A DNA stretch of 64,000 nt from Candidatus Parcubacteria bacterium. Its GTDB lineage: Bacteria > Patescibacteriota > Minisyncoccia > UBA6257 > HR35. Made by a program: the position numbers and the translations under genes. Of this stretch, positions 3,361 to 52,845 are shown in pieces. Under the pieces are notes generated by a model, which did no database searches, was not told where the DNA came from, and saw nothing but the letters and a program-made list of their open reading frames with translations. The stretch is taken from assembly GCA_026004535.1 (NCBI GenBank), contig BPJI01000001.1:431424-495423 (forward strand), given 5' to 3'. Each line of letters begins with the position of its first letter. Position 1 is the stretch's first letter.

Positions 3361-3530
3361 TATTCATTACCCGGATATGGAACGGATAAATTAACTGGAT
3401 GTAAACCGGATGATATTATTAATTATTTTTACTCGGATTTACACCGGATAAACTACCCTGATTATAACCGGATATATCTGGTATTCATCCGGGTAATTAA
3501 TCAGGTATTTAATCCGGGTAATCTATTTAA
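3361..3530. repeat. ccggat-word repeat element (direct block, then inverted atccggg block)
   Basis: About a dozen (a)cccggat / aaccggat words at ~11-13 nt spacing, followed by the reverse-complement words catccgggtaa / aatccgggtaa. Confidence 0.8.
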
Positions 3531-6947: not shown

Positions 6948-7933
6948 TGAAAAAAATTTTTAAGCTTTATCCTTTTATTGTTATTTTTGTTTTTATTATT
7001 TTGATTTCGCTTCATTTTGTTTATTCTGTTTTTGTTCCTTTGCTTATTGGTGAGAGAAAAGAAATTTATATTAATCCAGGAACAAAAATCTGGTTTTTAG
7101 CCCAAAATTTAGAAAAAAACGGTATTATTCGTTCTGCTTTTTATTTTAGATTTTTAGTTAATTTAAGAAATTCAAAAATCAAAGCTGGAATATATGAATT
7201 TAGTGGTTATTATAATTTATTAGATGTAATTCAAACTTTAGAAAAAGGAGGCCGAGGTGTAAAGATAACGATTATTGAGGGTTTAACTTTAAAAGAAATT
7301 GAAAAACTTTTAAAAGAAAAAGGATTTAATGTCGATCTGGCTAAATATAAATTAGCAGATTTCTCTGAAATTGATTTAAAAAATTATTTTCCGGCCGAAA
7401 GTAGTCTAGAAGGATTTTTAGCACCCGATACTTACGAATTCTTTCCTAATGATGATGAAAAAACAATTGTTCAAAAAATTTTAAAAAACTTTTCAAGAAA
7501 ATATTTACCTGAAATTTTAAAAGGAATGGATTTTAATTTATATCAAAGATTAATTTTAGCTTCAATAGTTGAAAAAGAGGCGAAGTATCAAGATGATTTT
7601 CCTATAATTGCTGGTATTTTGATTAAGAGACTAAAAAATAATAAACAATTAGAGGTTGATGCAGCTTTGGTTTATGAAAAATGTGGATTTGTTTTCTGTC
7701 AAGATGCTCTAAATAAAAAAGACCTTATTAAAGATTCTCCTTATAATACTTATAAAAAATTAGGCTTAACACCAACTCCGATTTCTAATCCTGGTATTTT
7801 AGCAATTAAATCAGTTAATAATCCCGTTCAGACTGATTATTGGTATTATCTAACTGATTCTGAAGGTCGAGCAATATTTGCTAAAACATTTAAAGAGCAT
7901 CAGGAAAACATTAAAAAATATCTAAAGAGATGA
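6929..7933 (+). CDS. mltG: endolytic murein transglycosylase MltG (YceG family)
   Basis: 334 aa. N-terminal TM helix, YceG fold, conserved LILASIVEKEA motif. Confidence 0.8.
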   Translation: MAHEDLMKKIFKLYPFIVIFVFIILISLHFVYSVFVPLLIGERKEIYINPGTKIWFLAQNLEKNGIIRSAFYFRFLVNLRNSKIKAGIYEFSGYYNLLDVIQTLEKGGRGVKITIIEGLTLKEIEKLLKEKGFNVDLAKYKLADFSEIDLKNYFPAESSLEGFLAPDTYEFFPNDDEKTIVQKILKNFSRKYLPEILKGMDFNLYQRLILASIVEKEAKYQDDFPIIAGILIKRLKNNKQLEVDAALVYEKCGFVFCQDALNKKDLIKDSPYNTYKKLGLTPTPISNPGILAIKSVNNPVQTDYWYYLTDSEGRAIFAKTFKEHQENIKKYLKR

Positions 7934-8775
7934 TTCCCAAGGGTTACTTAATCATCATTATAATCATTTTAGCAATTTTGTCAGTCTTTTCTTTAAGGAA
8001 AACCTACCAAGAGTTTGTTGTACCTAAGATTGGCGTTACTATTTACCCATTTTATGATATTGTTAAAGAAATTGTTGGCGATAAATATGAGGTTGTTTTA
8101 ATTACTCCTCCTGGTGCTGAACCTCATAATTATGAACTGAAAATAGAAGATGTTAAAAGACTTCGTGGTATTAAGATAGTTTTTGCTAATGGTTTAGGGA
8201 TTGATAGCTGGACAGAAAATTTGATTAAAAATTTTAAAGACGTAAAAACGGTTTACTTATATCAAGGTGTTGATTTAATTGAGCAGGATCCTCATTTTTG
8301 GCTTTCTTTAGAAAATATGAAAAAAATTGCGAAGATTGTCGAAAAAGAAATGGAAAACTTTGATAAAAAAAATAGAGAGTATTATCAAGAAAATTTAGAT
8401 AAAGTTTTAGAGAAAATAGAAAATCTACAAACAGAAGCAAAACAAACAGTTTTTTCAAATAAATTCATTATTACCCAACACAATGCTTTTAATTACTTAG
8501 CTAAGGAATTAAATTTAAATGTCGCCGGTTATTTAGAAGGAGAAAACAAAGAATTAACCCCAGCTGAACTTTCACAATTAATTAATAAAATAAGAATCTT
8601 AAATATAAAAGTAATTTTTAAAGAACCGGGCGAAGAAAGTAATCTTCTCAAAACTATTGCTCAGGAATTAAATTTAAAAATTTATGAATTAGACCCAATC
8701 GAAGGCAAAAGTGGTTTAAACTATTTTGACGCTTATAGAAAAAATATAGAAACTCTAAAACAAGCACTTCGATGA
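7930..8775 (+). CDS. znuA: metal (Zn/Mn) ABC transporter substrate-binding protein, ZnuA/TroA family
   Basis: 281 aa. Signal/TM N-terminus, PPGAEPHNYE metal-binding His motif, cluster-9 SBP fold. Confidence 0.75.
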   Translation: MIPKGYLIIIIIILAILSVFSLRKTYQEFVVPKIGVTIYPFYDIVKEIVGDKYEVVLITPPGAEPHNYELKIEDVKRLRGIKIVFANGLGIDSWTENLIKNFKDVKTVYLYQGVDLIEQDPHFWLSLENMKKIAKIVEKEMENFDKKNREYYQENLDKVLEKIENLQTEAKQTVFSNKFIITQHNAFNYLAKELNLNVAGYLEGENKELTPAELSQLINKIRILNIKVIFKEPGEESNLLKTIAQELNLKIYELDPIEGKSGLNYFDAYRKNIETLKQALR

Positions 8776-8776
8776 T

Positions 8777-8826
8777 TTCAACTAACCGTCTAACACGATA
8801 TAGCATCTTAAACAGTCAAATTAATG
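8777..8826. repeat. left copy of a ~46-50 bp direct repeat flanking the pilin cassette
   Basis: caactaaccgtctaacacgAtatagcaTCttaaacagtcaaatTaat, which matches 10675-10724 at roughly 46 of 50 positions. Confidence 0.75.
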
Positions 8827-8977
8827 TTTACGACGTCGTACGTCGTAAAGTAAATATAACGACGTGCGACGTCCAGATATTGAGAAAATAATATTTAGGA
8901 CATCGCACGTCTTAAATTATTTTCCGTGTCCGATTCCGTTCATTTCGCCTTTAAATTTTAGCACAATTTTCCACATC

Positions 8978-9005
8978 TTGACATCATATTTTTTCTATTT
9001 ATAAT
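8978..9005 (+). promoter_or_regulatory. near-consensus sigma70-type promoter for the pilin gene
   Basis: TTGACA (8978-8983), 16-nt spacer, TATAAT (9000-9005), 7 nt upstream of the ATG at 9012. Confidence 0.5.
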
Positions 9006-9011
9006 TAAATT

Positions 9012-9332
9012 ATGAATAAAAAAATGAATAAATCCTTCACTTTAGTTGAACTTTTAGTTGTCTTAGCTCTAATAGCTATCTTAGCTACTGTCTTAATTGT
9101 TGTCATTAAGCCAGCAGATATCTTTAAAAGAGGTAGAGATAGTCAAAGAACTTCAGACCTTAAAAATCTTGAAAAAATATTTGACCTTATTCTTTTTGAA
9201 ACTCAAGGCACCTTTTCTGAACTTCAATATGCTTCCTCAAATGTTGTCTATATCTCTCTTCCTGATACTTCATCAACTTGTGGTCAATGGATAAGTCAAT
9301 TACCACAGCTTCCTTCAGGCTGGTCATATTGA
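9012..9332 (+). CDS. type IV pilin-like protein (prepilin N-terminal methylation domain); the ORF ends at an in-frame TGA
   Basis: N-terminus MNKKMNKSFTLVELLVVLALIAILA is a class III signal with the conserved Glu5. The same frame continues with no further stop into the LamG domain downstream. Confidence 0.7.
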   Translation: MNKKMNKSFTLVELLVVLALIAILATVLIVVIKPADIFKRGRDSQRTSDLKNLEKIFDLILFETQGTFSELQYASSNVVYISLPDTSSTCGQWISQLPQLPSGWSY

Positions 9333-19774: not shown

Positions 19775-19895
19775 TATTAACCGGATAAGTTACCCGGATT
19801 ATAACTGGATATAACTACCCGGCTTTTTACCGAATTCATTATGACAAAATAATCTAGGTGACTATCCGAGTAATCTATCCGGTAAGTTATCCGGG
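19775..19895. repeat. ccggat-word repeat element
   Basis: aaccggataagttacccggatt..., then inverted tatccgagtaa / atccggtaa / atccgggcaa words. Confidence 0.75.
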
Positions 19896-19942
19896 CAAAT
19901 AGATATCAGCAGCCATCCAACTAATTTATAATTATATTATAA

Positions 19943-23689: not shown

Positions 23690-23700
23690 TGTTATGTATT

Positions 23701-23800
23701 ACCCGGATAACCAACCGGATTATTTTACCCGGATGATTACCGGATAAATCCGGTTTATATCCAGGTAGTATTATCCGGTTAATATCCGGGTAAAAATATT
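23701..23800. repeat. ccggat-word repeat element
   Basis: acccggataaccaaccggatt..., then atccaggta / atccggtta / atccgggtaa. Confidence 0.75.
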
Positions 23801-26640: not shown

Positions 26641-26780
26641 AATACTACCCGGATGATTACCTGATAAAAATATCTACCTGGATAAATACCGGATTATTTT
26701 ACCCGAATGCTTACCAGATAAATCCGGTTTGAATCCGGGTAACTATATCCGGCTAATATCAGGGTAACTAGTTTCTTTAT
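26641..26780. repeat. ccggat-word repeat element
   Basis: tacccggatgattacctgataaaa..., then atccggtt / atccgggtaa words. Confidence 0.75.
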
Positions 26781-27152: not shown

Positions 27153-27535
27153 TAGGCAGACAGCAGCGGAAAATCTTAAAACGCAGACAGCTGCGGAAAT
27201 GCTTTAACTACCCGGATGGTCTATCGGATATAATTACCCGGATAGCTTATCGGATAATGTTTATCCAGATGAATACCGGATTATTTTATCCGGATGATTA
27301 CCGGATATTTATCTAACCGGATAACTTACCGGATATAGTTACCCGGATAAACTAACGGATATAATTACCCGGATTAATAACCGGATAAAAATACTCTATA
27401 TATCATCCGGTCTATATCCGGGTAGTTCTATCCGGTTCATAGCCGGGTAGTATTATACGATTATAATCCGGGCAGAAAATATTTTCAGCTGCTGTCTGCG
27501 GTAAATACTCTGACCACTGCTGTCCATATTAATAA
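27040..27535. repeat. composite repeat hotspot: cagctgc block, ccggat direct+inverted block, ctgctgtc block
   Basis: 27040-27200 holds gacagctg / cagctgc words. 27205-27480 holds ccggat and atccgg words. 27481-27535 holds cagctgctgtctgcg. Confidence 0.8.
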
Positions 27536-34720: not shown

Positions 34721-37501
34721 TTAATATTTCATTTGCAACCTTATTTTTCTATTAATTTTTGCTTTTTCTAAAATAACATTCTTTGTTTTTTCAAATCGCT
34801 TAAAGTTTTCTTGGTTCAAAAATTCTTCAAGTTCTTTTTCCTCAACAAAAGCACCGATATAAGGAATTGTTGATTTTAATATTTTAATTAAAACAAAATC
34901 ACTTTTACCTGGCCCACCACCTTTTTCTTCTAATTTTTGCCAATTTTCTTTTAACCAATTAAAAGTGAATTTTGCTGCATTTGAATTTAAAGAAACTGAA
35001 TTGAAAAAGAAAATAGTCTGATTAAATCTAACTTGTGAAGAAAGAATAAATTCAAAAATAGAACTTAACTTTTCTAAATTTTGTAAATTACCAAAAGCAA
35101 TTAAACATTTATTTTGTTCTTCAATCAAATTAGTCTGATGATAATAATTCAAAAGTTTTTCTAAATAGTTATCATTAGCAATTAAAGCATTATTAAAGAT
35201 TGCTTGTTTAATATCAGGATGAAGTTTTTCTTTGTCTTTTAAAAATTCTTCAAATTTTTCTTGGCTGAAATCTAAAATCTCTTTATTCTTCAAAATTCCC
35301 AAAGAAAATAGAGTTTTTTGCCTTAAAACTGTTTCATAAGGTTGTTCACCTTCCCTCGGCTCTTTTCCTAAAATATCCAAAACTTTTAAAGAAAATTTTT
35401 CTAATAAAGCGGAAAGGTCAGAAACGGACGCGGAACGAACGGAATAAGCGGAACTGGTTTTTCCGTCTGTTCCATTTTTTCCGTGTCCGTTTCCGTCTGT
35501 TCTGCTTTGATCTGTATCAATTCTGCGCAGTTCCGCGTTTAGTCTGCGTTGGTCTACGTCTATCCTGCGTTGGTCTGCGTTTAGTAAATAATAATAAAAA
35601 TTTAAATAAGAAATAATTTCACTAAAAACAAAGGGTTTAGAATTATTGATAAAATATTTTTCTAAAATTTCTAAAAAGTTTTCAAAATTTTTCTCACCCT
35701 TTCTAACTAACATATCATAATCATGAACTAAATGAACCTGATCAATTTCATTTAATTTTTCTAAATTCTCTAAATTTCTTTTTAGAATTTCTTCATCATA
35801 ATCACTAACAAAAAAACTTGAATAGTTTTTATTAAGAATAAAAGTTGAAAAATTAGATTCAGGAATTGGGGCGATTTCTTCTTTTTCTTTTAATATTTTT
35901 CTTTCTTCTTTATTATCAATTTCAATCACAAAAGGAATTTTCCAATAATCTTCTCTGTCTTCTAAAAATAAGAATCTCCTTTGTCTTAAACAGTATCTGC
36001 CTTGCTCTTTTTTAAAACTTACCAAAGGATAGCCAACTTTTTCAATATAATCTTTCATAATCTCAACCACTGGCACACTCGAAACTTCTTCTAAGCATTG
36101 CCACAAATCTTCTGCTTTAGCATTTTGATAAGTAAATTTTTTAATATACAGCCTCAATCCTTCTCTAAATTTTTCTTCACCTAAATAATTCTCAATCATC
36201 CTTAAAACACTGCCACCTTTTTCATAAGATATCTCATCAAAAATTTCAACTGACTCATTTGGATCTTTAACCTCAACTTTAATCGGGTGAGAAGCAATCA
36301 AACCATCAGCATTCAAAGCACTAAAAACTTCATCCAAAACATATTTTTCTAAAATTCTCCAATTAGGATAAAAATTATTAACAGCTTTATAAGCTAAATA
36401 AGTGGCAAAGCTTTCATTTAACCATAAATCGTCCCACCACTTCATTGTTACTAAATTACCAAACCACATATGAACTAATTCATGAGCAATAACTTCAGCA
36501 ATTCTTTCTTGGGTAGATTTTGGTGTTATGCCTTCGAAAACTAAAAGTAAATTCTCGCGAAAAGTAATTGCTCCCCAATTTTCCATTGCTCCAGCAGCAA
36601 AATCAGGAACAGCGATTAGATCTAATTTTTTTAAGGGATAAGGGGAATCAAAATATTCTTCTAAATAATTTAAAAATTTTTTAGCATTTTCTAAAGCAAA
36701 TCTTACTCCTTCTAATTTTTCCTTTGGCGTAACTGCCACTCGAATAATAACTTCTTTATATTTATCTTCAACAAAATACCAATCACCAATTCCAATATAC
36801 AAAAGATAAGTTGACATCTTGGGAGTTGTTTCAAAAATCACTTTTTTCTTTTCATTAACAATTTCTTCTTTAATTGGCAAAGTATTGGAAATTGCTTTTA
36901 ATTCTTTAGGAAAAATTAAAGTTAAATCAAACGTTGCTTTTTTATCTGGGTCATCAAAACAAGGAAAAGCTTTGCGTGCTTCAATTGGTTCAAATTGAGT
37001 TGTGATTAAACATTTTTCTTGTTCTTTGTCTTTATATTTACTTAAATAAATTCCTCCTAAAACCTCTTTTAATTCTCCTTCAAAATCAATAAAAATAGTA
37101 TTATCTTTTTCAGAAAAATTATTTTTAATCAAAATTCCATCTTTTTGAACTTCAAAATCTACATCTTGGTCATTCACTTTTAGCTGATTAATTTTTAAAT
37201 CAACAGCATCAATTTTTAGAAAATTACCCCGATGATCACCTGATAGATTACCCGGATAATTGTCTGGCATATTACCCGGATAATCACTGGATAAATCCGG
37301 TTCATATTCGGGTAGTATTATCCGGTTAATATCCGGGTGGTTCCATCCGGTTTGAATCCGGGTAGCTGTATCTGGTTTTAATCCGGGTAAACTAATTCTT
37401 ATCTCTTCTCTGCCTCGATAAATATTCTTCTCTAAATCAAAGTCTAATTCAATTTTATAATTTCTAACTTCCATTATTTTTCCTTGATAAATTTTCAACA
37501 A
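34721..37501 (-). CDS. pepN: aminopeptidase N (M1 family) with in-frame repeat insertions
   Basis: GAMENWG exopeptidase motif and HELVHMWFGNLVT...WLNESFA zinc motif. The acggaa/ctgcg element at 35395-35580 and the ccggat element at 37228-37392 sit inside the ORF. Confidence 0.85.
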   Translation of the reverse strand: MLKIYQGKIMEVRNYKIELDFDLEKNIYRGREEIRISLPGLKPDTATRIQTGWNHPDINRIILPEYEPDLSSDYPGNMPDNYPGNLSGDHRGNFLKIDAVDLKINQLKVNDQDVDFEVQKDGILIKNNFSEKDNTIFIDFEGELKEVLGGIYLSKYKDKEQEKCLITTQFEPIEARKAFPCFDDPDKKATFDLTLIFPKELKAISNTLPIKEEIVNEKKKVIFETTPKMSTYLLYIGIGDWYFVEDKYKEVIIRVAVTPKEKLEGVRFALENAKKFLNYLEEYFDSPYPLKKLDLIAVPDFAAGAMENWGAITFRENLLLVFEGITPKSTQERIAEVIAHELVHMWFGNLVTMKWWDDLWLNESFATYLAYKAVNNFYPNWRILEKYVLDEVFSALNADGLIASHPIKVEVKDPNESVEIFDEISYEKGGSVLRMIENYLGEEKFREGLRLYIKKFTYQNAKAEDLWQCLEEVSSVPVVEIMKDYIEKVGYPLVSFKKEQGRYCLRQRRFLFLEDREDYWKIPFVIEIDNKEERKILKEKEEIAPIPESNFSTFILNKNYSSFFVSDYDEEILKRNLENLEKLNEIDQVHLVHDYDMLVRKGEKNFENFLEILEKYFINNSKPFVFSEIISYLNFYYYLLNADQRRIDVDQRRLNAELRRIDTDQSRTDGNGHGKNGTDGKTSSAYSVRSASVSDLSALLEKFSLKVLDILGKEPREGEQPYETVLRQKTLFSLGILKNKEILDFSQEKFEEFLKDKEKLHPDIKQAIFNNALIANDNYLEKLLNYYHQTNLIEEQNKCLIAFGNLQNLEKLSSIFEFILSSQVRFNQTIFFFNSVSLNSNAAKFTFNWLKENWQKLEEKGGGPGKSDFVLIKILKSTIPYIGAFVEEKELEEFLNQENFKRFEKTKNVILEKAKINRKIRLQMKY

Positions 37502-39840: not shown

Positions 39841-39990
39841 ATTTTTACCCAGATTATAACCAGATAATACTACCCGGATATTAACCGGATATAACTACTC
39901 GGATTCAAACCGGATACAAATACCCGGATATAAACCGGTATTCATCCGGGTAATCTATCCGGTATTAATCCGGGCATATTAATAAAATCT
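39841..39990. repeat. ccggat-word repeat element
   Basis: taacccagat / aaccagat / acccggat words, then catccgggtaa / atccggtatt / aatccgggca words. Confidence 0.8.
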
Positions 39991-44435: not shown

Positions 44436-45161
44436 ATGGACTTTTTAAAAATAATTACAAAATATAAAAACAGACCAATACCTGAAAGAAAGTTTGATCA
44501 ATTCTATGCTACGGCCGATACTGTTATTAAAAGAAGCAACCTATTATTGAGATATCAAAAAAAATTCAAATTTTCTAAAATTATTTTTCTTGGTGATGAT
44601 GATTTAACTTCAATTGCTTTGGCTTTAACTAAAAAATTTGATGAAATTATTGTTTTAGATATTGATGAAAGAATTTTAAATTTTATTAATGAAGTTACTG
44701 AAAAGGAAAAATTAAATGTAAAAATATTTAAACATAATATTTGCAACCCTTTATCAAAAGATTTACTTAAAACCCAAACCAATTTTATTTTCTTTGATCC
44801 ACCTTATAATCCTTCGGCAGTTAAAATTTGGCTGATTAGGGCATTGGAAATTCTTTTAGGTTTAGGAAGTAATAAAAAAAGAAAAAATATAGAATTTTTA
44901 AAAAACAAATTTATTTTTATGTGTTATGGTTATACAGATAAAAGTTTTGAAAGAGGTTTAAAGATTCAAGAAATAATTCATAATTTAGGTTTAATCATTC
45001 AAGAAAAATTTAGAAAGTTTAATAAATATACCGGAGCCGAGACAATTAATAATGAAAGTGATTTTTATATTATTCAACCAACGCCTTTGGTTAAATTAGA
45101 AACAATAGATAAGTTTAAAAACAAAAGTTTTGAAGAAAAAATTTATACTTGGCAAAATTGA
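44436..45161 (+). CDS. BpsA-like aminopropyltransferase (DUF43; N4-bis(aminopropyl)spermidine synthase family)
   Basis: IIFLGDDDLTSIALAL and FFDPPYN, the signature motifs of DUF43/BpsA. Confidence 0.6.
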   Translation: MDFLKIITKYKNRPIPERKFDQFYATADTVIKRSNLLLRYQKKFKFSKIIFLGDDDLTSIALALTKKFDEIIVLDIDERILNFINEVTEKEKLNVKIFKHNICNPLSKDLLKTQTNFIFFDPPYNPSAVKIWLIRALEILLGLGSNKKRKNIEFLKNKFIFMCYGYTDKSFERGLKIQEIIHNLGLIIQEKFRKFNKYTGAETINNESDFYIIQPTPLVKLETIDKFKNKSFEEKIYTWQN

Positions 45162-45308
45162 TTAACATAAAATTCCTAATCCCAAAATCAAAACTTTTTT
45201 ATTTTTTAAATTTATCATCTTAATTTTTTATAAAAATATATTATTCAATATCTATTCCCCAATCCTACAAACTGGATTAATTCTTCACTGCTACGTAGCA
45301 ATAGACTT

Positions 45309-45818
45309 TTATACTAATTTTGATAGTTTTTTATATAACTTTGATTTTCTATCTAATTTGCTTAGTACTTGATACAGTTTTTTCTTTTGCTTTTTGTTCA
45401 TAATTTTTATAATCTCTTCTATTAAAAGTTCTGGCCAAAACATAGATGGCATTCTTCTTTTTATTTTTCTCCAATCTTTCTCTATATAATCTAAAATAGT
45501 CGGTTGTTTTATTTCTTTCTTGATTCTTTCCTGAATCAATCTGAAACCTTCCCCACTTTCGTATAACCACACAGCAACTTTGGCTATAGTCCCATGGCTT
45601 ACTTTAACAACTTTTTCTATTTCTCTATAACTTAAACCTTTTAGTAATAATTTGGCAATTTTAATTCTTTTGGCTAACATAATTACTTCTTGTTTTGTCA
45701 AAAGATCAGTAATGAAATGCATAATTTCTTGACGATTTTTTAAAACAGAAATTGCTTCGCAAAATTCCTCTAGAAGCTCTGCTTTCTCCTGATCTGAAAT
45801 TGATTTGTATTTAGGCAT
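45309..45818 (-). CDS. TrpR-like YerC/YecD-family HTH regulator
   Basis: LLTKQEVIMLAKRIKIAKLLLKGLSYREIEKVVKVSHGTIAKV, the YerC/YecD pattern. Confidence 0.6.
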   Translation of the reverse strand: MPKYKSISDQEKAELLEEFCEAISVLKNRQEIMHFITDLLTKQEVIMLAKRIKIAKLLLKGLSYREIEKVVKVSHGTIAKVAVWLYESGEGFRLIQERIKKEIKQPTILDYIEKDWRKIKRRMPSMFWPELLIEEIIKIMNKKQKKKLYQVLSKLDRKSKLYKKLSKLV

Positions 45819-45914
45819 TTTTAAAACATGAAATCTAAATAATATAAAATATCTAAATTTTATGTAAAAATAACCAAATTAAATATAACACAAAATAAAC
45901 AAAAAAACCAAAAT

Positions 45915-45956
45915 GGTCAATTTTTCTATTGCTACGTAGCAATAGAAAAATTGACC
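45915..45956. promoter_or_regulatory. perfect 42-nt palindrome (candidate operator or terminator) upstream of the yerC-like gene
   Basis: ggtcaatttttctattgctacgtagcaatagaaaaattgacc equals its own reverse complement. Its core TGCTACGTAGCAATAG recurs at 45289-45304 and 10592-10607. Confidence 0.6.
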
Positions 45957-46009
45957 AAATTAGGGATAATTAAAGATGAGTTTTTGATTTATAATTTAAT
46001 TAAACACAA

Positions 46010-46691
46010 ATGAAAATTTATATTGGTACTTCAGGTTGGCAATATTGGCATTGGAGATGAAAATTTTACCCAGAAAATTCAACTTCTAAAGATTTTTTAA
46101 AATTTTATTCAAAACATTTCAATACTGTTGAAATTAATACAAGTTTTTATCATTTAACAAAAAAGACAACATTATCGTCTTTTTACTCATTTTAGAAGAT
46201 TAAAATTAAATAAAGAAGATAAAAAATTACTATTAGAAACTATCCAAATTTATAAAGTTTTAAAAGAAAAATTAGGACCAATTTTAATTCAACTTCCTCC
46301 AGGATTAAAATATGATTTAAAATTATTCAAATCATTTATAAATGTTATTAAAAAATTTAAAAAAGTAAAATTTGCTATTGAATTTCGTCATAAAACTTGG
46401 CTAAATAAAAAAATTTATACTCTATTAAAAAAATACAAAATAGCGTTCGTAATATCTGATTCACCAAGATGGCCAACTGATTTTGTTAAAACAACTGATG
46501 TGATTTATGTTAGATTTCATGGCAAACCAATTCTTTTTGCTTCAAAATACTCAAAAGAAGAATTAAAAGAATATGCTGAAAGAATTAAAAAACTAAAACC
46601 AAAAATTTTATTTGCTTATTTTAACAATGATGCTGAAGGTTATGCTATTGACAATGCTTTAGAATTTAAAAATTTATTTAATTTATCATAA
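46010..46691 (+). pseudogene. DUF72 (UPF0759) family gene, disrupted
   Basis: MKIYIGTSGWQYWHWR, then an in-frame TGA at 46058-46060, then KFYPE... A frame switch near 46180 and a missing mid-section follow. The C-terminal part (ending ...YVRFHGKPILFASKYSKEEL...AYFNNDAEGYAIDNA) is intact in another frame. Confidence 0.6.
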
Positions 46692-51540: not shown

Positions 51541-52845
51541 TTAAATTTTAGCACAAATTTCTAATAATCTATTATATTTTACTACTCTTTCACCTTGTAA
51601 AGGAACACCGATTTTAAAATAATCTGCACCAAAAGCAATTCCTAAATCAATTAGCCAATTATCATTTGTTTCGCCACTACGATGTGAAAAAATAGTAAAT
51701 AAATTATTTTCTTTGGCTAATTTAACAAAATTAAATGTTTCAGTTATGGTGCCGATTTGATTAGGTTTGACAATTACACCATCAACAGAATTTTTCTCTA
51801 AAGCAATTTTTAATCTTTCAATATTGGTCACTGTTAAATCATCGCCAATTACTTTAAATCCTTCTTTACGAAGTTCAGCAAATTTTTCAAATTCATTTTC
51901 TTTATATGGATCTTCTAAATATTTAACACCCAAAATTTTTAATTTTCGATAAACATTCTTCCAATTAACTATATTTGTTATTTGATTAGCAGCAATATCA
52001 GCTCCAAGCTCAAAATAAAAATTATTACCCGGATGATTACCGGATAAATCCGGTTTATATCCGGGTAAATTATCCGTATCCGGTTTAAATCCGGGCAACT
52101 TATCCGGTTGTAATCCGGGTAAATTATCCGGTTCATATCCGGATAAATTACTAGTTACTTCTTTTAAATATAAAAAAGGTTCATAATTATCACTAAAGTT
52201 TGTACAAAATGCTCCTTCATCGTTTCTTCCTAATGGTTTAGGCAATTTTTTTTCAATCTGATTAATAATACTAATGATCTTAGCGATTAAAAGTTCAAAA
52301 TATGCAGCATTGAAAGAATTTTTCCGTAAGTTCTGCGTCAGTTCCGTGTAGTGCTGTGTTATTAACCAATATTCCTGAAAATCTAAATTATTAAAAGAAT
52401 GCACTCCTCCACCAATAATATTTAAAATTAATCTTAGCATTCGTGTAGACTCGTCCTTATTTATTCGTGTAGATTCGTTTTTTAAATATTCAAACAACTC
52501 CAAATTTTTACTTTTAGCTAGAGCTCGAGCAAAACTGATTGAAACTCCTAAAGTAAAATTACCTCCTAATTTTTCTTTATTCTTCCCTGCTCTTTCAATT
52601 AAAAATTCATCTAATTCATTAAGATTTTGAAAATCTTTATTTTTTATATCTTTCAAAAATTCGCTTAAATTCTTTTTAATTTTTTCACAATCTAAACAAA
52701 CAACCTCATGAGAACCGATACTTTTCCCAGAAGGAATTGACGCTTTTTCTTTTATTCCTTCACTTTCAATCTCAACCTCGATTGTCCATTCTCCTCTTGA
52801 GTCTAAAATTTTATTTACTTTTATATCATTTATTTTCATCTTCAA
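51541..52845 (-). CDS. eno: enolase (phosphopyruvate hydratase) carrying three in-frame repeat-element insertions
   Basis: ILDSRGEWTIEVEI N-terminus, NDEGAF, YLEDP, IGDDLTVTN, KPNQIG, SHRSGETND and KYNRLLEI catalytic motifs. Inserts at 52024-52150 (ccggat), 52325-52360 (cagaac/ctgcg) and 52436-52480 (cgtgtagac). Confidence 0.85.
   Translation of the reverse strand: MKMKINDIKVNKILDSRGEWTIEVEIESEGIKEKASIPSGKSIGSHEVVCLDCEKIKKNLSEFLKDIKNKDFQNLNELDEFLIERAGKNKEKLGGNFTLGVSISFARALAKSKNLELFEYLKNESTRINKDESTRMLRLILNIIGGGVHSFNNLDFQEYWLITQHYTELTQNLRKNSFNAAYFELLIAKIISIINQIEKKLPKPLGRNDEGAFCTNFSDNYEPFLYLKEVTSNLSGYEPDNLPGLQPDKLPGFKPDTDNLPGYKPDLSGNHPGNNFYFELGADIAANQITNIVNWKNVYRKLKILGVKYLEDPYKENEFEKFAELRKEGFKVIGDDLTVTNIERLKIALEKNSVDGVIVKPNQIGTITETFNFVKLAKENNLFTIFSHRSGETNDNWLIDLGIAFGADYFKIGVPLQGERVVKYNRLLEICAKI

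Follow-up and report, generated by a model that had tools for sequence, protein, structure and literature searches.

A TrpR-family regulator gene bracketed by two putative operator palindromes in candidate-phyla-radiation bacteria

In a 64-kb stretch of DNA from a Candidatus Parcubacteria genome, here called the window, a gene for a small regulator of the YerC/HisR type, which belongs to the TrpR family, lies between two palindromic elements that share the same core. The gene and its two sites form a module that is conserved across many candidate-phyla-radiation bacteria, often within a ribosomal-protein operon. Judged from comparisons between lineages, the palindromes are quite probably the cognate operators of an autorepressor, the protein encoded between them. 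That the 169-aa protein binds these sites is very probable, and it is also likely that it represses its own gene through the upstream site. The co-inheritance of the gene and the two sites, the covariation of amino acids and bases, and the spacing between operator and -10 box were computed; actual binding, repression, any ligand, and the roles of the downstream site and of a third, solo site are inferred.

The regulator gene is an intact open reading frame at 45309..45818 (-), and its product matches KatS3mg096_486, encoded on a 556,583-bp contig in a MAG of Candidatus Parcubacteria, at 100% identity. Residues ~10-100 form a TrpR-like domain and residues ~105-169 a helical extension that is specific to its family, and the protein exceeds the short single-domain YerC-YecD format (<100-110 aa). 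It matches the Pfam model PF01371 (Trp_repressor) with 59 bits, the cut-off being 27, and the NCBIfam model TIGR02531 (yecD_yerC) with 53.5 bits (cut-off 42.2) over all 88 profile positions, whereas the score with the TrpR equivalog model TIGR01321, 23.1 bits, is below the cut-off of 67.25. The TrpR-like domain has profile matches in the PDB to 3FRW, 3G1C, and 3KOR (E 1e-17 to 1e-18), and the fold agrees with that of the HisR-like 3G1C/3FRW and of TrpR, all-helical with a helix-turn-helix. The residues D38, T41, E44, and R51, which the protein has in common with helix 2 of HisR, are conserved. Fold searches found no structural relative of the ~65-aa C-terminal extension, and a search of 1.84 billion cluster representatives gave 59 matches to it. 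The full-length matches are mostly 167-189 aa long with the extension at the C-terminal end, and the extension is conserved in, and limited to, homologues of about 170-180 aa. The subfamily that carries it is so far confined to Patescibacteria-type records. The PADLOC defence models gave no match.

The neighbours of the regulator gene are a convergent gene for a BpsA_C-like methyltransferase (44436-45161, +) and a divergent DUF72 gene. The latter, which adjoins the palindrome at 46010-46691 (+), is a pseudogene: a TGA stands in frame at the place of a conserved Gly (46058-46060), ~20 codons are lost together with a change of frame near 46195, and its two pieces align to positions 1-39 and 54-216 of the Pfam DUF72 profile. 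The TGA at a Gly could suggest genetic code 25, but this was rejected, the nonsense codon and the frameshift/deletion being those of a pseudogene. Since a neighbouring ORF also terminates at TGA, the source genome, with 28.5% G+C, uses the standard genetic code.

Exact copies of the 16-mer TGCTACGTAGCAATAG are found at 10592-10607 (+), 45289-45304 (+), and 45930-45945 (+), the last place also carrying it at 45926-45941 (-), and the number expected by chance in the window is zero (100 shuffles). The 16-mer copies, the palindrome, and the gene all lie where a preliminary description of this DNA had placed them. The palindrome had been reported as perfect and 42 nt long; it is indeed perfect, but its length is 44 nt (45914-45957), and every other perfect inverted repeat of the window is shorter. 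The 12-mer core has no sites in the window beyond the same three places, even when one mismatch is allowed. A position weight matrix was built from 45 elements of the TG class, all of them from other lineages than that of the window, and its matches in the 64 kb are exactly the three sites, with 36.1 bits for the downstream, 35.4 for the solo, and 23.6 for the upstream copy. The next best score in the window is 0.1 bits, and the maximum in shuffles is 13.6 bits. The downstream and solo copies score highest because each of them retains one outer AAAGT block; in the upstream copy the outer blocks are replaced by AAAAATTGACCA.

The upstream site, a putative operator, is the palindrome itself (45914..45957, without strand, centre 45935/45936), 95 nt before the ATG. 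Its inner half-sites are TGCT/AGCA, both arms terminate in TTGACC, and its position is homologous to that of the upstream element in 71 of the 86 loci described below. The downstream site at 45280..45309 (-) abuts the stop codon and reads AAAGTCTATTGCTACGTAGCAGTGAAGAAT on the gene strand. The core and one outer AAAGT block are intact there, the second outer block is degenerate, and the position is homologous to that of the downstream element in 74 of the 86 loci. The solo third site, AAAGTCTAATGCTACGTAGCAATAGAGAAT at 10583..10612 (+), is identical to the downstream site (gene strand) at 26 of 30 positions. It lies within the 571-bp spacer between a pilin-like gene (9012-10229) and a gene for an ABC ATPase (10801-), ~165 nt upstream of the only promoter-like match preceding the latter. 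By its sequence it is a good site, but with this distance, and with unrelated genes next to the distal copies of other genomes, the regulon link to the pilin region that the preliminary description had suggested is speculative. No remnant of yerC was found beside it.

The surroundings of the solo site are rich in other repeats. Two unrelated inverted repeats flank it, at 10522-10568 and 10625-10670 (GGTAATCTAATTTTTACGACGT/ACGTCGTAAAAATTAAATTTCC and TCATTTCTAC...GTAGAAATGA). In the region 7930-12308, a type IV pilin-like gene with a Laminin_G_3 domain (9012-10229; Pfam) and the repeat-rich spacer of 571 bp split what appears to be a metal ABC transporter, with the solute-binding gene (7930-8793) on one side and the ATPase and permease genes (10801-12308) on the other; the transporter assignments were made by reading the sequences, the pilin domains by domain search. 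The window also holds 82 copies of ATCCGGRTAA (<=1 mismatch) as compared to 4.8 expected. They cluster in many intergenic regions at a spacing of roughly 12-25 nt, often as inverted pairs, namely at 3367-3521, 10343-10526, 12295-12608, 19777-19898, 23699-23793, 26645-26767, 27208-27425, 37224-37390, 39845-39953, and 52025-52146. The last of these is in frame within the enolase ORF 51541-52839 (-), where it encodes ...NLPGLQPDKLPGFKPDTDNLPGYKPD..., and the cluster at 37224-37390 falls inside the long ORF 34721-37474. The clusters resemble the in-frame palindromic elements of Rickettsia.

Homologues of 41-65% identity were retrieved at 85 related loci by two exact-protein look-ups and a metagenome scan, which makes 86 with the locus of the window. 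Most homologues, down to about 43% identity, are bracketed by two near-identical palindromes of ~30 bp. Of the 86 loci, 71 have the upstream element, at 9-90 nt from the start codon, 74 have the downstream element, at 0-55 nt past the stop codon, and 64 have both. The gene and the two palindromes co-travel in about 60 distinct lineages. Copies away from the gene are rare. There are few distal ones in about 467 kb of related loci, and those in loci L098 and L102 are single and adjoin unrelated genes. The consensus of the element is AAA-S-T-N5-T-R-C-T[ACRT]A-G-Y-A-N5-A-S-TTT, and the logo of 96 unique elements reads AAA-S-T-N-Y-N-N-T-R-C-T [A-C-R-T] A-G-Y-A-N-N-R-N-A-S-T-T-T. Of 111 unique elements, 96 have the CT-N4-AG core, and T-9/A+9 is conserved at 96%. 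The core TGCTACGTAGCA flanks the gene even in L033 and L035, whose proteins are 61-63% identical to that of the window. Other lineages have co-varied versions, TGCT-CTAG-AGCA, CACT-ACGT-AGTG, GCGCT-CAAG-AGCGC, and ATACT-TCCC-AGTAT, and in L038/L039 both copies have changed jointly to TGCT-TTAC-TGCA. At the variable positions the four half-sites of one genome are 0.71-0.77 identical, as compared to 0.36 between genomes.

Two of these loci have a peculiar structure. In L038 (2102-3000), and likewise in L039, the regulator gene and rplD are separated by an insertion of ~800 bp that contains two small ORFs and is flanked by a duplicated segment of ~130 bp from the rplD leader. In L056 (3630-3945), five copies of the palindrome are found upstream of the regulator gene, in two groups and in tandem, with neighbours ~53 nt apart; the first repeat unit of this array is CAAAACTTCACCACTTCGCAGTAGTGAAGTTTTAGGCCACTTTATTTTCCGCTC.

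The strongest connection between the protein and the palindrome is found at residue 65, which follows the invariant Tyr64. This residue is Arg in each of the 28 distinct proteins that have half-sites with T-G at positions -4,-3 (TGCT/AGCA), and it is another residue in each of the 28 proteins with half-sites that are mostly TA, CA, or CG. Two further proteins have half TG and half TA sites, and their residue 65 is not Arg either (Fisher 1.5e-14). In a neighbour-joining tree residue 65 changes eight times, and each of these changes shares its branch with a change in the site. Plain mutual information between protein and site was dominated by phylogeny and unusable alone, and we replaced it by counts of co-changes on the tree. 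Among 158 alignable protein positions compared in this way, residue 65 is an outlier with agreement in 56/58, 8 co-changes, and no unmatched change in the protein; the next best position reaches 43/58 and 1 co-change. The centre tetranucleotide (AYRT vs others) is best associated with E68 and H75, both in the helix-turn-helix. When aligned to E. coli TrpR with hhalign, R65 falls on Arg69, and H75, G76, T77, A79, and K80 fall on Ile79, Ala80, Thr81, Thr83, and Arg84, which are DNA-contact residues of TrpR (PMC9413887). A covariation of this kind is the signature that would be expected if the protein recognised the palindrome base-specifically and symmetrically on both arms.

The position of the upstream element relative to the promoter points in the same direction. 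Hexamers resembling a -10 box pile up at +35 (9/46 unique regions) and at +27 from the centre of the upstream element, facing the gene. TGn-extended -10 boxes at +24 to +36 from the centre were found on the gene-facing side of 14 of 46 upstream elements; the opposite side gave 1/46, the region past the downstream element 0/52, and the other side of the downstream element 0/53. Given this fixed distance, the -35/spacer region of the gene's promoter lies under the right arm of the upstream element, a classical position for a repressor. In several lineages the -10 box ends 6-10 nt before the ATG, which suggests that the transcripts may be near-leaderless. In the window, the candidate promoter elements of the regulator gene at 45882..45920 (-) adjoin or overlap an arm of the operator: TTGACC (45920-45915), 17 nt, TATTTT (45897-45892), and then an extended -10 box, TGtTATATT (45890-45882). 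A second promoter-like match, TTTACA-16-TATATT at 45841..45868 (-), lies 22 nt before the ATG and is likewise putative. Such matches are no more numerous in this AT-rich region than in shuffles, so the promoters of the window are to be regarded as candidates. The centre of the window palindrome is 117 nt from the ATG as compared to the usual 40-60 nt, which counts against its reading as an operator.

The preliminary description had suggested that the regulator is flanked by its own operator, and the comparative support for this is strong, with the co-travel of gene and sites, the covariation of a helix-turn-helix residue with a base, and the fixed distance to the -10 box. Probably a dimer of the protein reads the inner half-sites T-R-C-T / A-G-Y-A symmetrically across the 4-bp centre, and the G of TGCT would be specified by residue 65, which corresponds to Arg69 of TrpR. 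By occupying the upstream site, which extends over the -35/spacer region of this gene's promoter, the protein would repress its own transcription, an arrangement like the one predicted for about half of the hisR genes.

The downstream site would most likely be an auxiliary operator. Through a loop of about 600 bp it could act together with the upstream site, or the protein bound there could form a roadblock and so insulate the gene from the genes around it; each of these proposed roles is tentative, and rather doubtful when taken singly. The downstream element keeps its place relative to the 3' end of the gene, and not relative to the start of the next one, and no promoter is found at a fixed distance from it. 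The two sites are 531-670 bp apart from centre to centre (median about 598), and no helical phasing was found when this spacing was searched for it. An operator directly past a stop codon is unusual, and this counts against the operator reading; an auxiliary operator that acts by looping or as a roadblock nevertheless appears to be the most economical interpretation of the site.

A comparison with known systems shows where the module departs from them. YerC of B. subtilis is HisR, a histidine-dependent repressor, in vitro, purified HisR of Ruminococcus gnavus binds the palindrome of 20 bp predicted for it, and about half of the genomes have a candidate HisR site ahead of hisR (PMC9413887). The N-terminal ~100 aa of the window protein are homologous to HisR, and the target of HisR is also a palindromic DNA site. 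HisR has fewer than 100 aa, however, as compared to 169 aa with a family-specific C-terminal extension here. Its consensus, cacTTTA-N6-TAAAgtg, is 20 bp long, whereas the element here has ~30 bp with an inner T-R-C-T[N4]A-G-Y-A, and the outer AAAST/ASTTT blocks are oriented opposite to the HisR consensus. The linkage of HisR to his and histidine-transport genes was not seen either, no his genes being found among the neighbours of the regulator loci, which are ribosomal, glycolytic, and others, and HisR is not known to have a second site beyond the stop codon. E. coli TrpR differs in its half-sites, GNACT-N8-AGTNC as compared to a 4-bp centre here, and in that no tryptophan genes are involved here, in addition to the equivalog score below cut-off. 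That the site departs from both the HisR consensus and the TrpR spacing counts against the operator reading. Repressors with auxiliary operators and DNA looping are known from lac O1/O2, gal OE/OI, and lambda CI. The likeness lies in one site at the promoter and a second identical site some hundred bp off, and in lambda OL and OR bracket the repressor gene cI as the sites bracket the gene here. A difference from these systems is that no helical phasing was found in the spacing of the two sites here.

The genomic neighbourhood of the module raises another explanation. At 13 distinct loci the module is found between rplC (L3) and rplD (L4) in the S10 ribosomal-protein operon, and it is co-directional with it (among them L030 8760-11266; L033 8926-11228; also L035, L038-L041, L043, L052, L066, L067, and L070). 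All of these are on the branch of the YerC tree that includes the window protein, and the regulator homologues at this place have an extended -10 box of their own. Junctions without the module are seen in the related genomes L115-L118; in relatives with an L3 70-83% identical to the one of L030, the empty junctions measure 0-164 nt. In the L3 tree the empty junctions are nested among filled ones, a pattern that requires no fewer than three gains or losses at this one place. At depth, the identity of YerC tracks that of L3/L4 weakly (Spearman 0.30). At the other loci the neighbours are diverse and mostly co-directional, with pgk, G6PD, gnd, PEP-utilising enzymes, polA, efp, and others. The palindrome-gene-palindrome arrangement could then be a small mobile or insertion module, or the descendant of one, with the palindromes as its ends and the helix-turn-helix protein as the factor that binds them, and the operator-like behaviour would be secondary. 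The discrete unit of ~650 bp with near-identical flanking repeats would suit this explanation, as would its occurrence in very different neighbourhoods, its presence or absence exactly at the rplC-rplD junction within one clade, the poor agreement of YerC with L3/L4 identities, the tandem array of five ends in L056, the solo copies in L098, L102, and the window, and a weak helix-turn-helix similarity of the regulator to transposases of the IS1, IS630, and IS30 types. Insertion sequences with a terminal repeat that overlaps the transposase promoter are known, as are the REP/RAYT and hix/Hin arrangements. All of these share an architecture with the module, a small gene between two short repeats that its product recognises, and as in the insertion sequences the upstream repeat overlaps the promoter.

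Against this, neither Pfam, NCBIfam, nor fold searches found a catalytic domain in the regulator, DDE, HUH, and serine-recombinase domains being absent, and its C-terminal 65 aa are a short helical region that is limited to the family and has no structural match. There is one copy of the gene per locus, and the three sites in 64 kb are not a dispersed element. Close relatives have common neighbours, the solo copy has no gene remnant beside it, and a search of the empty rplC-rplD junctions for a solo palindrome or a footprint found neither, the comparison of filled and empty junctions being one between distant genomes. The module behaves as a unit that has changed its place over long times, with no indication of recent or autonomous mobility, and we regard an insertion module as an unlikely explanation.

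It is still less likely that the elements act as RNA hairpins, that is, as terminators, processing sites, or stabilisers that separate the regulator cistron, for instance in the S10 operon mRNA. Many copies could form stable stems of 13-15 bp with a 4-nt loop, and the folding energies are -32.2 kcal/mol (z -9.9) for the upstream copy of the window, -14.8 for L035, and -18.8 for L030. The downstream and solo copies of the window, on the other hand, are no more stable when folded than shuffles (-5.8 to -7.1 kcal/mol, z -0.9 to -1.5); the hairpin of the downstream site has -5.8 kcal/mol (z -0.9), and that of the solo site is weak on either strand. These poor hairpins have the highest scores with the matrix, and it is the sequence of the element that is retained, not its structure. 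The arms are paired to 61-81% at the lineage-variable positions 5-8, which is explained more simply by a hairpin or cruciform than by a protein that reads ~13 bp in each half-site. The mismatches between the arms, however, are G·T in 47, A·C in 58, and others in 76 cases on the gene strand, with no wobble excess on either strand. They concentrate at the variable positions 5, 7, and 8, and the two conserved blocks are nearly always symmetric. Furthermore, the helix-turn-helix residue homologous to a base-contact residue of TrpR co-varies with a base of the stem symmetrically on both arms.

A strand polarity is suggested by the centre, which is ACAT in 34 and ATGT in 5 cases, and since the neighbours are mostly co-directional the elements would be transcribed. 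The upstream and downstream copies also behave as direct repeats (31 vs 9). Neither the polar centre nor this behaviour is required by a perfectly symmetric dimer site, but in L100/L102/L104 the upstream and downstream elements have opposite centre polarity, and the complementarity of the arms, the excess of ACAT, and the direct-repeat behaviour could be partly the result of descent or homogenisation. Of the three copies in the window, a terminator scan picks out only the palindrome, on the minus strand; it sits upstream of the gene in a divergent promoter region and not at a gene end. No U-tract follows the stem, the 3-4 T of the logo being paired with the A-tract, and at the gathering score Rfam has no match to the elements, two tRNAs being its only matches in the window. 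A terminator shared between the copies, which had been proposed as well, lacks support, given the missing U-tract, the missing G·U bias, the two copies that fold poorly, and the place of the palindrome between divergent genes.

That the three copies are chance or a generic low-complexity repeat with no specific function is barely conceivable: a scan of species-representative genomes, the source genome not being among them, did find the exact 16-mer once each in 29 unrelated genomes, in none of them next to a yerC homologue, but no copies are expected in the window, and dozens of lineages have homologous elements next to their homologue of the gene.

The system proposed here, an autorepressor of the TrpR family with a palindrome as its operator, is of a known kind. 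What would be new is the subfamily with the C-terminal extension, the bipartite site of ~30 bp, the second site after the stop codon, and the frequent embedding in the S10 operon. A search for YerC/TrpR proteins in candidate-phyla-radiation bacteria, within the literature library that could be searched, found no paper that links the two. For the lineages with the module between rplC and rplD, a speculative and improbable extension is that it serves as a ligand-responsive roadblock or 'valve' in the S10-spc operon, and/or as a minimal self-regulating unit that relocates as a whole. If the former is true, a TrpR-type sensor would throttle the transcription of some 25 downstream ribosomal and secretion genes, and we know of no such growth control of S10-spc in other bacteria.

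The genomes of candidate-phyla-radiation bacteria are tiny, and to our knowledge almost none of the regulators of these bacteria have been studied. The analysis offers a concrete predicted pairing of a protein with its DNA site in a regulator family that is possibly confined to them, together with a predicted rule of specificity, by which Arg65 would recognise the G of TGCT. One site on the promoter and another directly past the stop codon are unusual for the TrpR family, and so is the position between rplC and rplD. Taken together, this architecture and this position raise the possibility that the protein may also gate the transcription of its neighbours.
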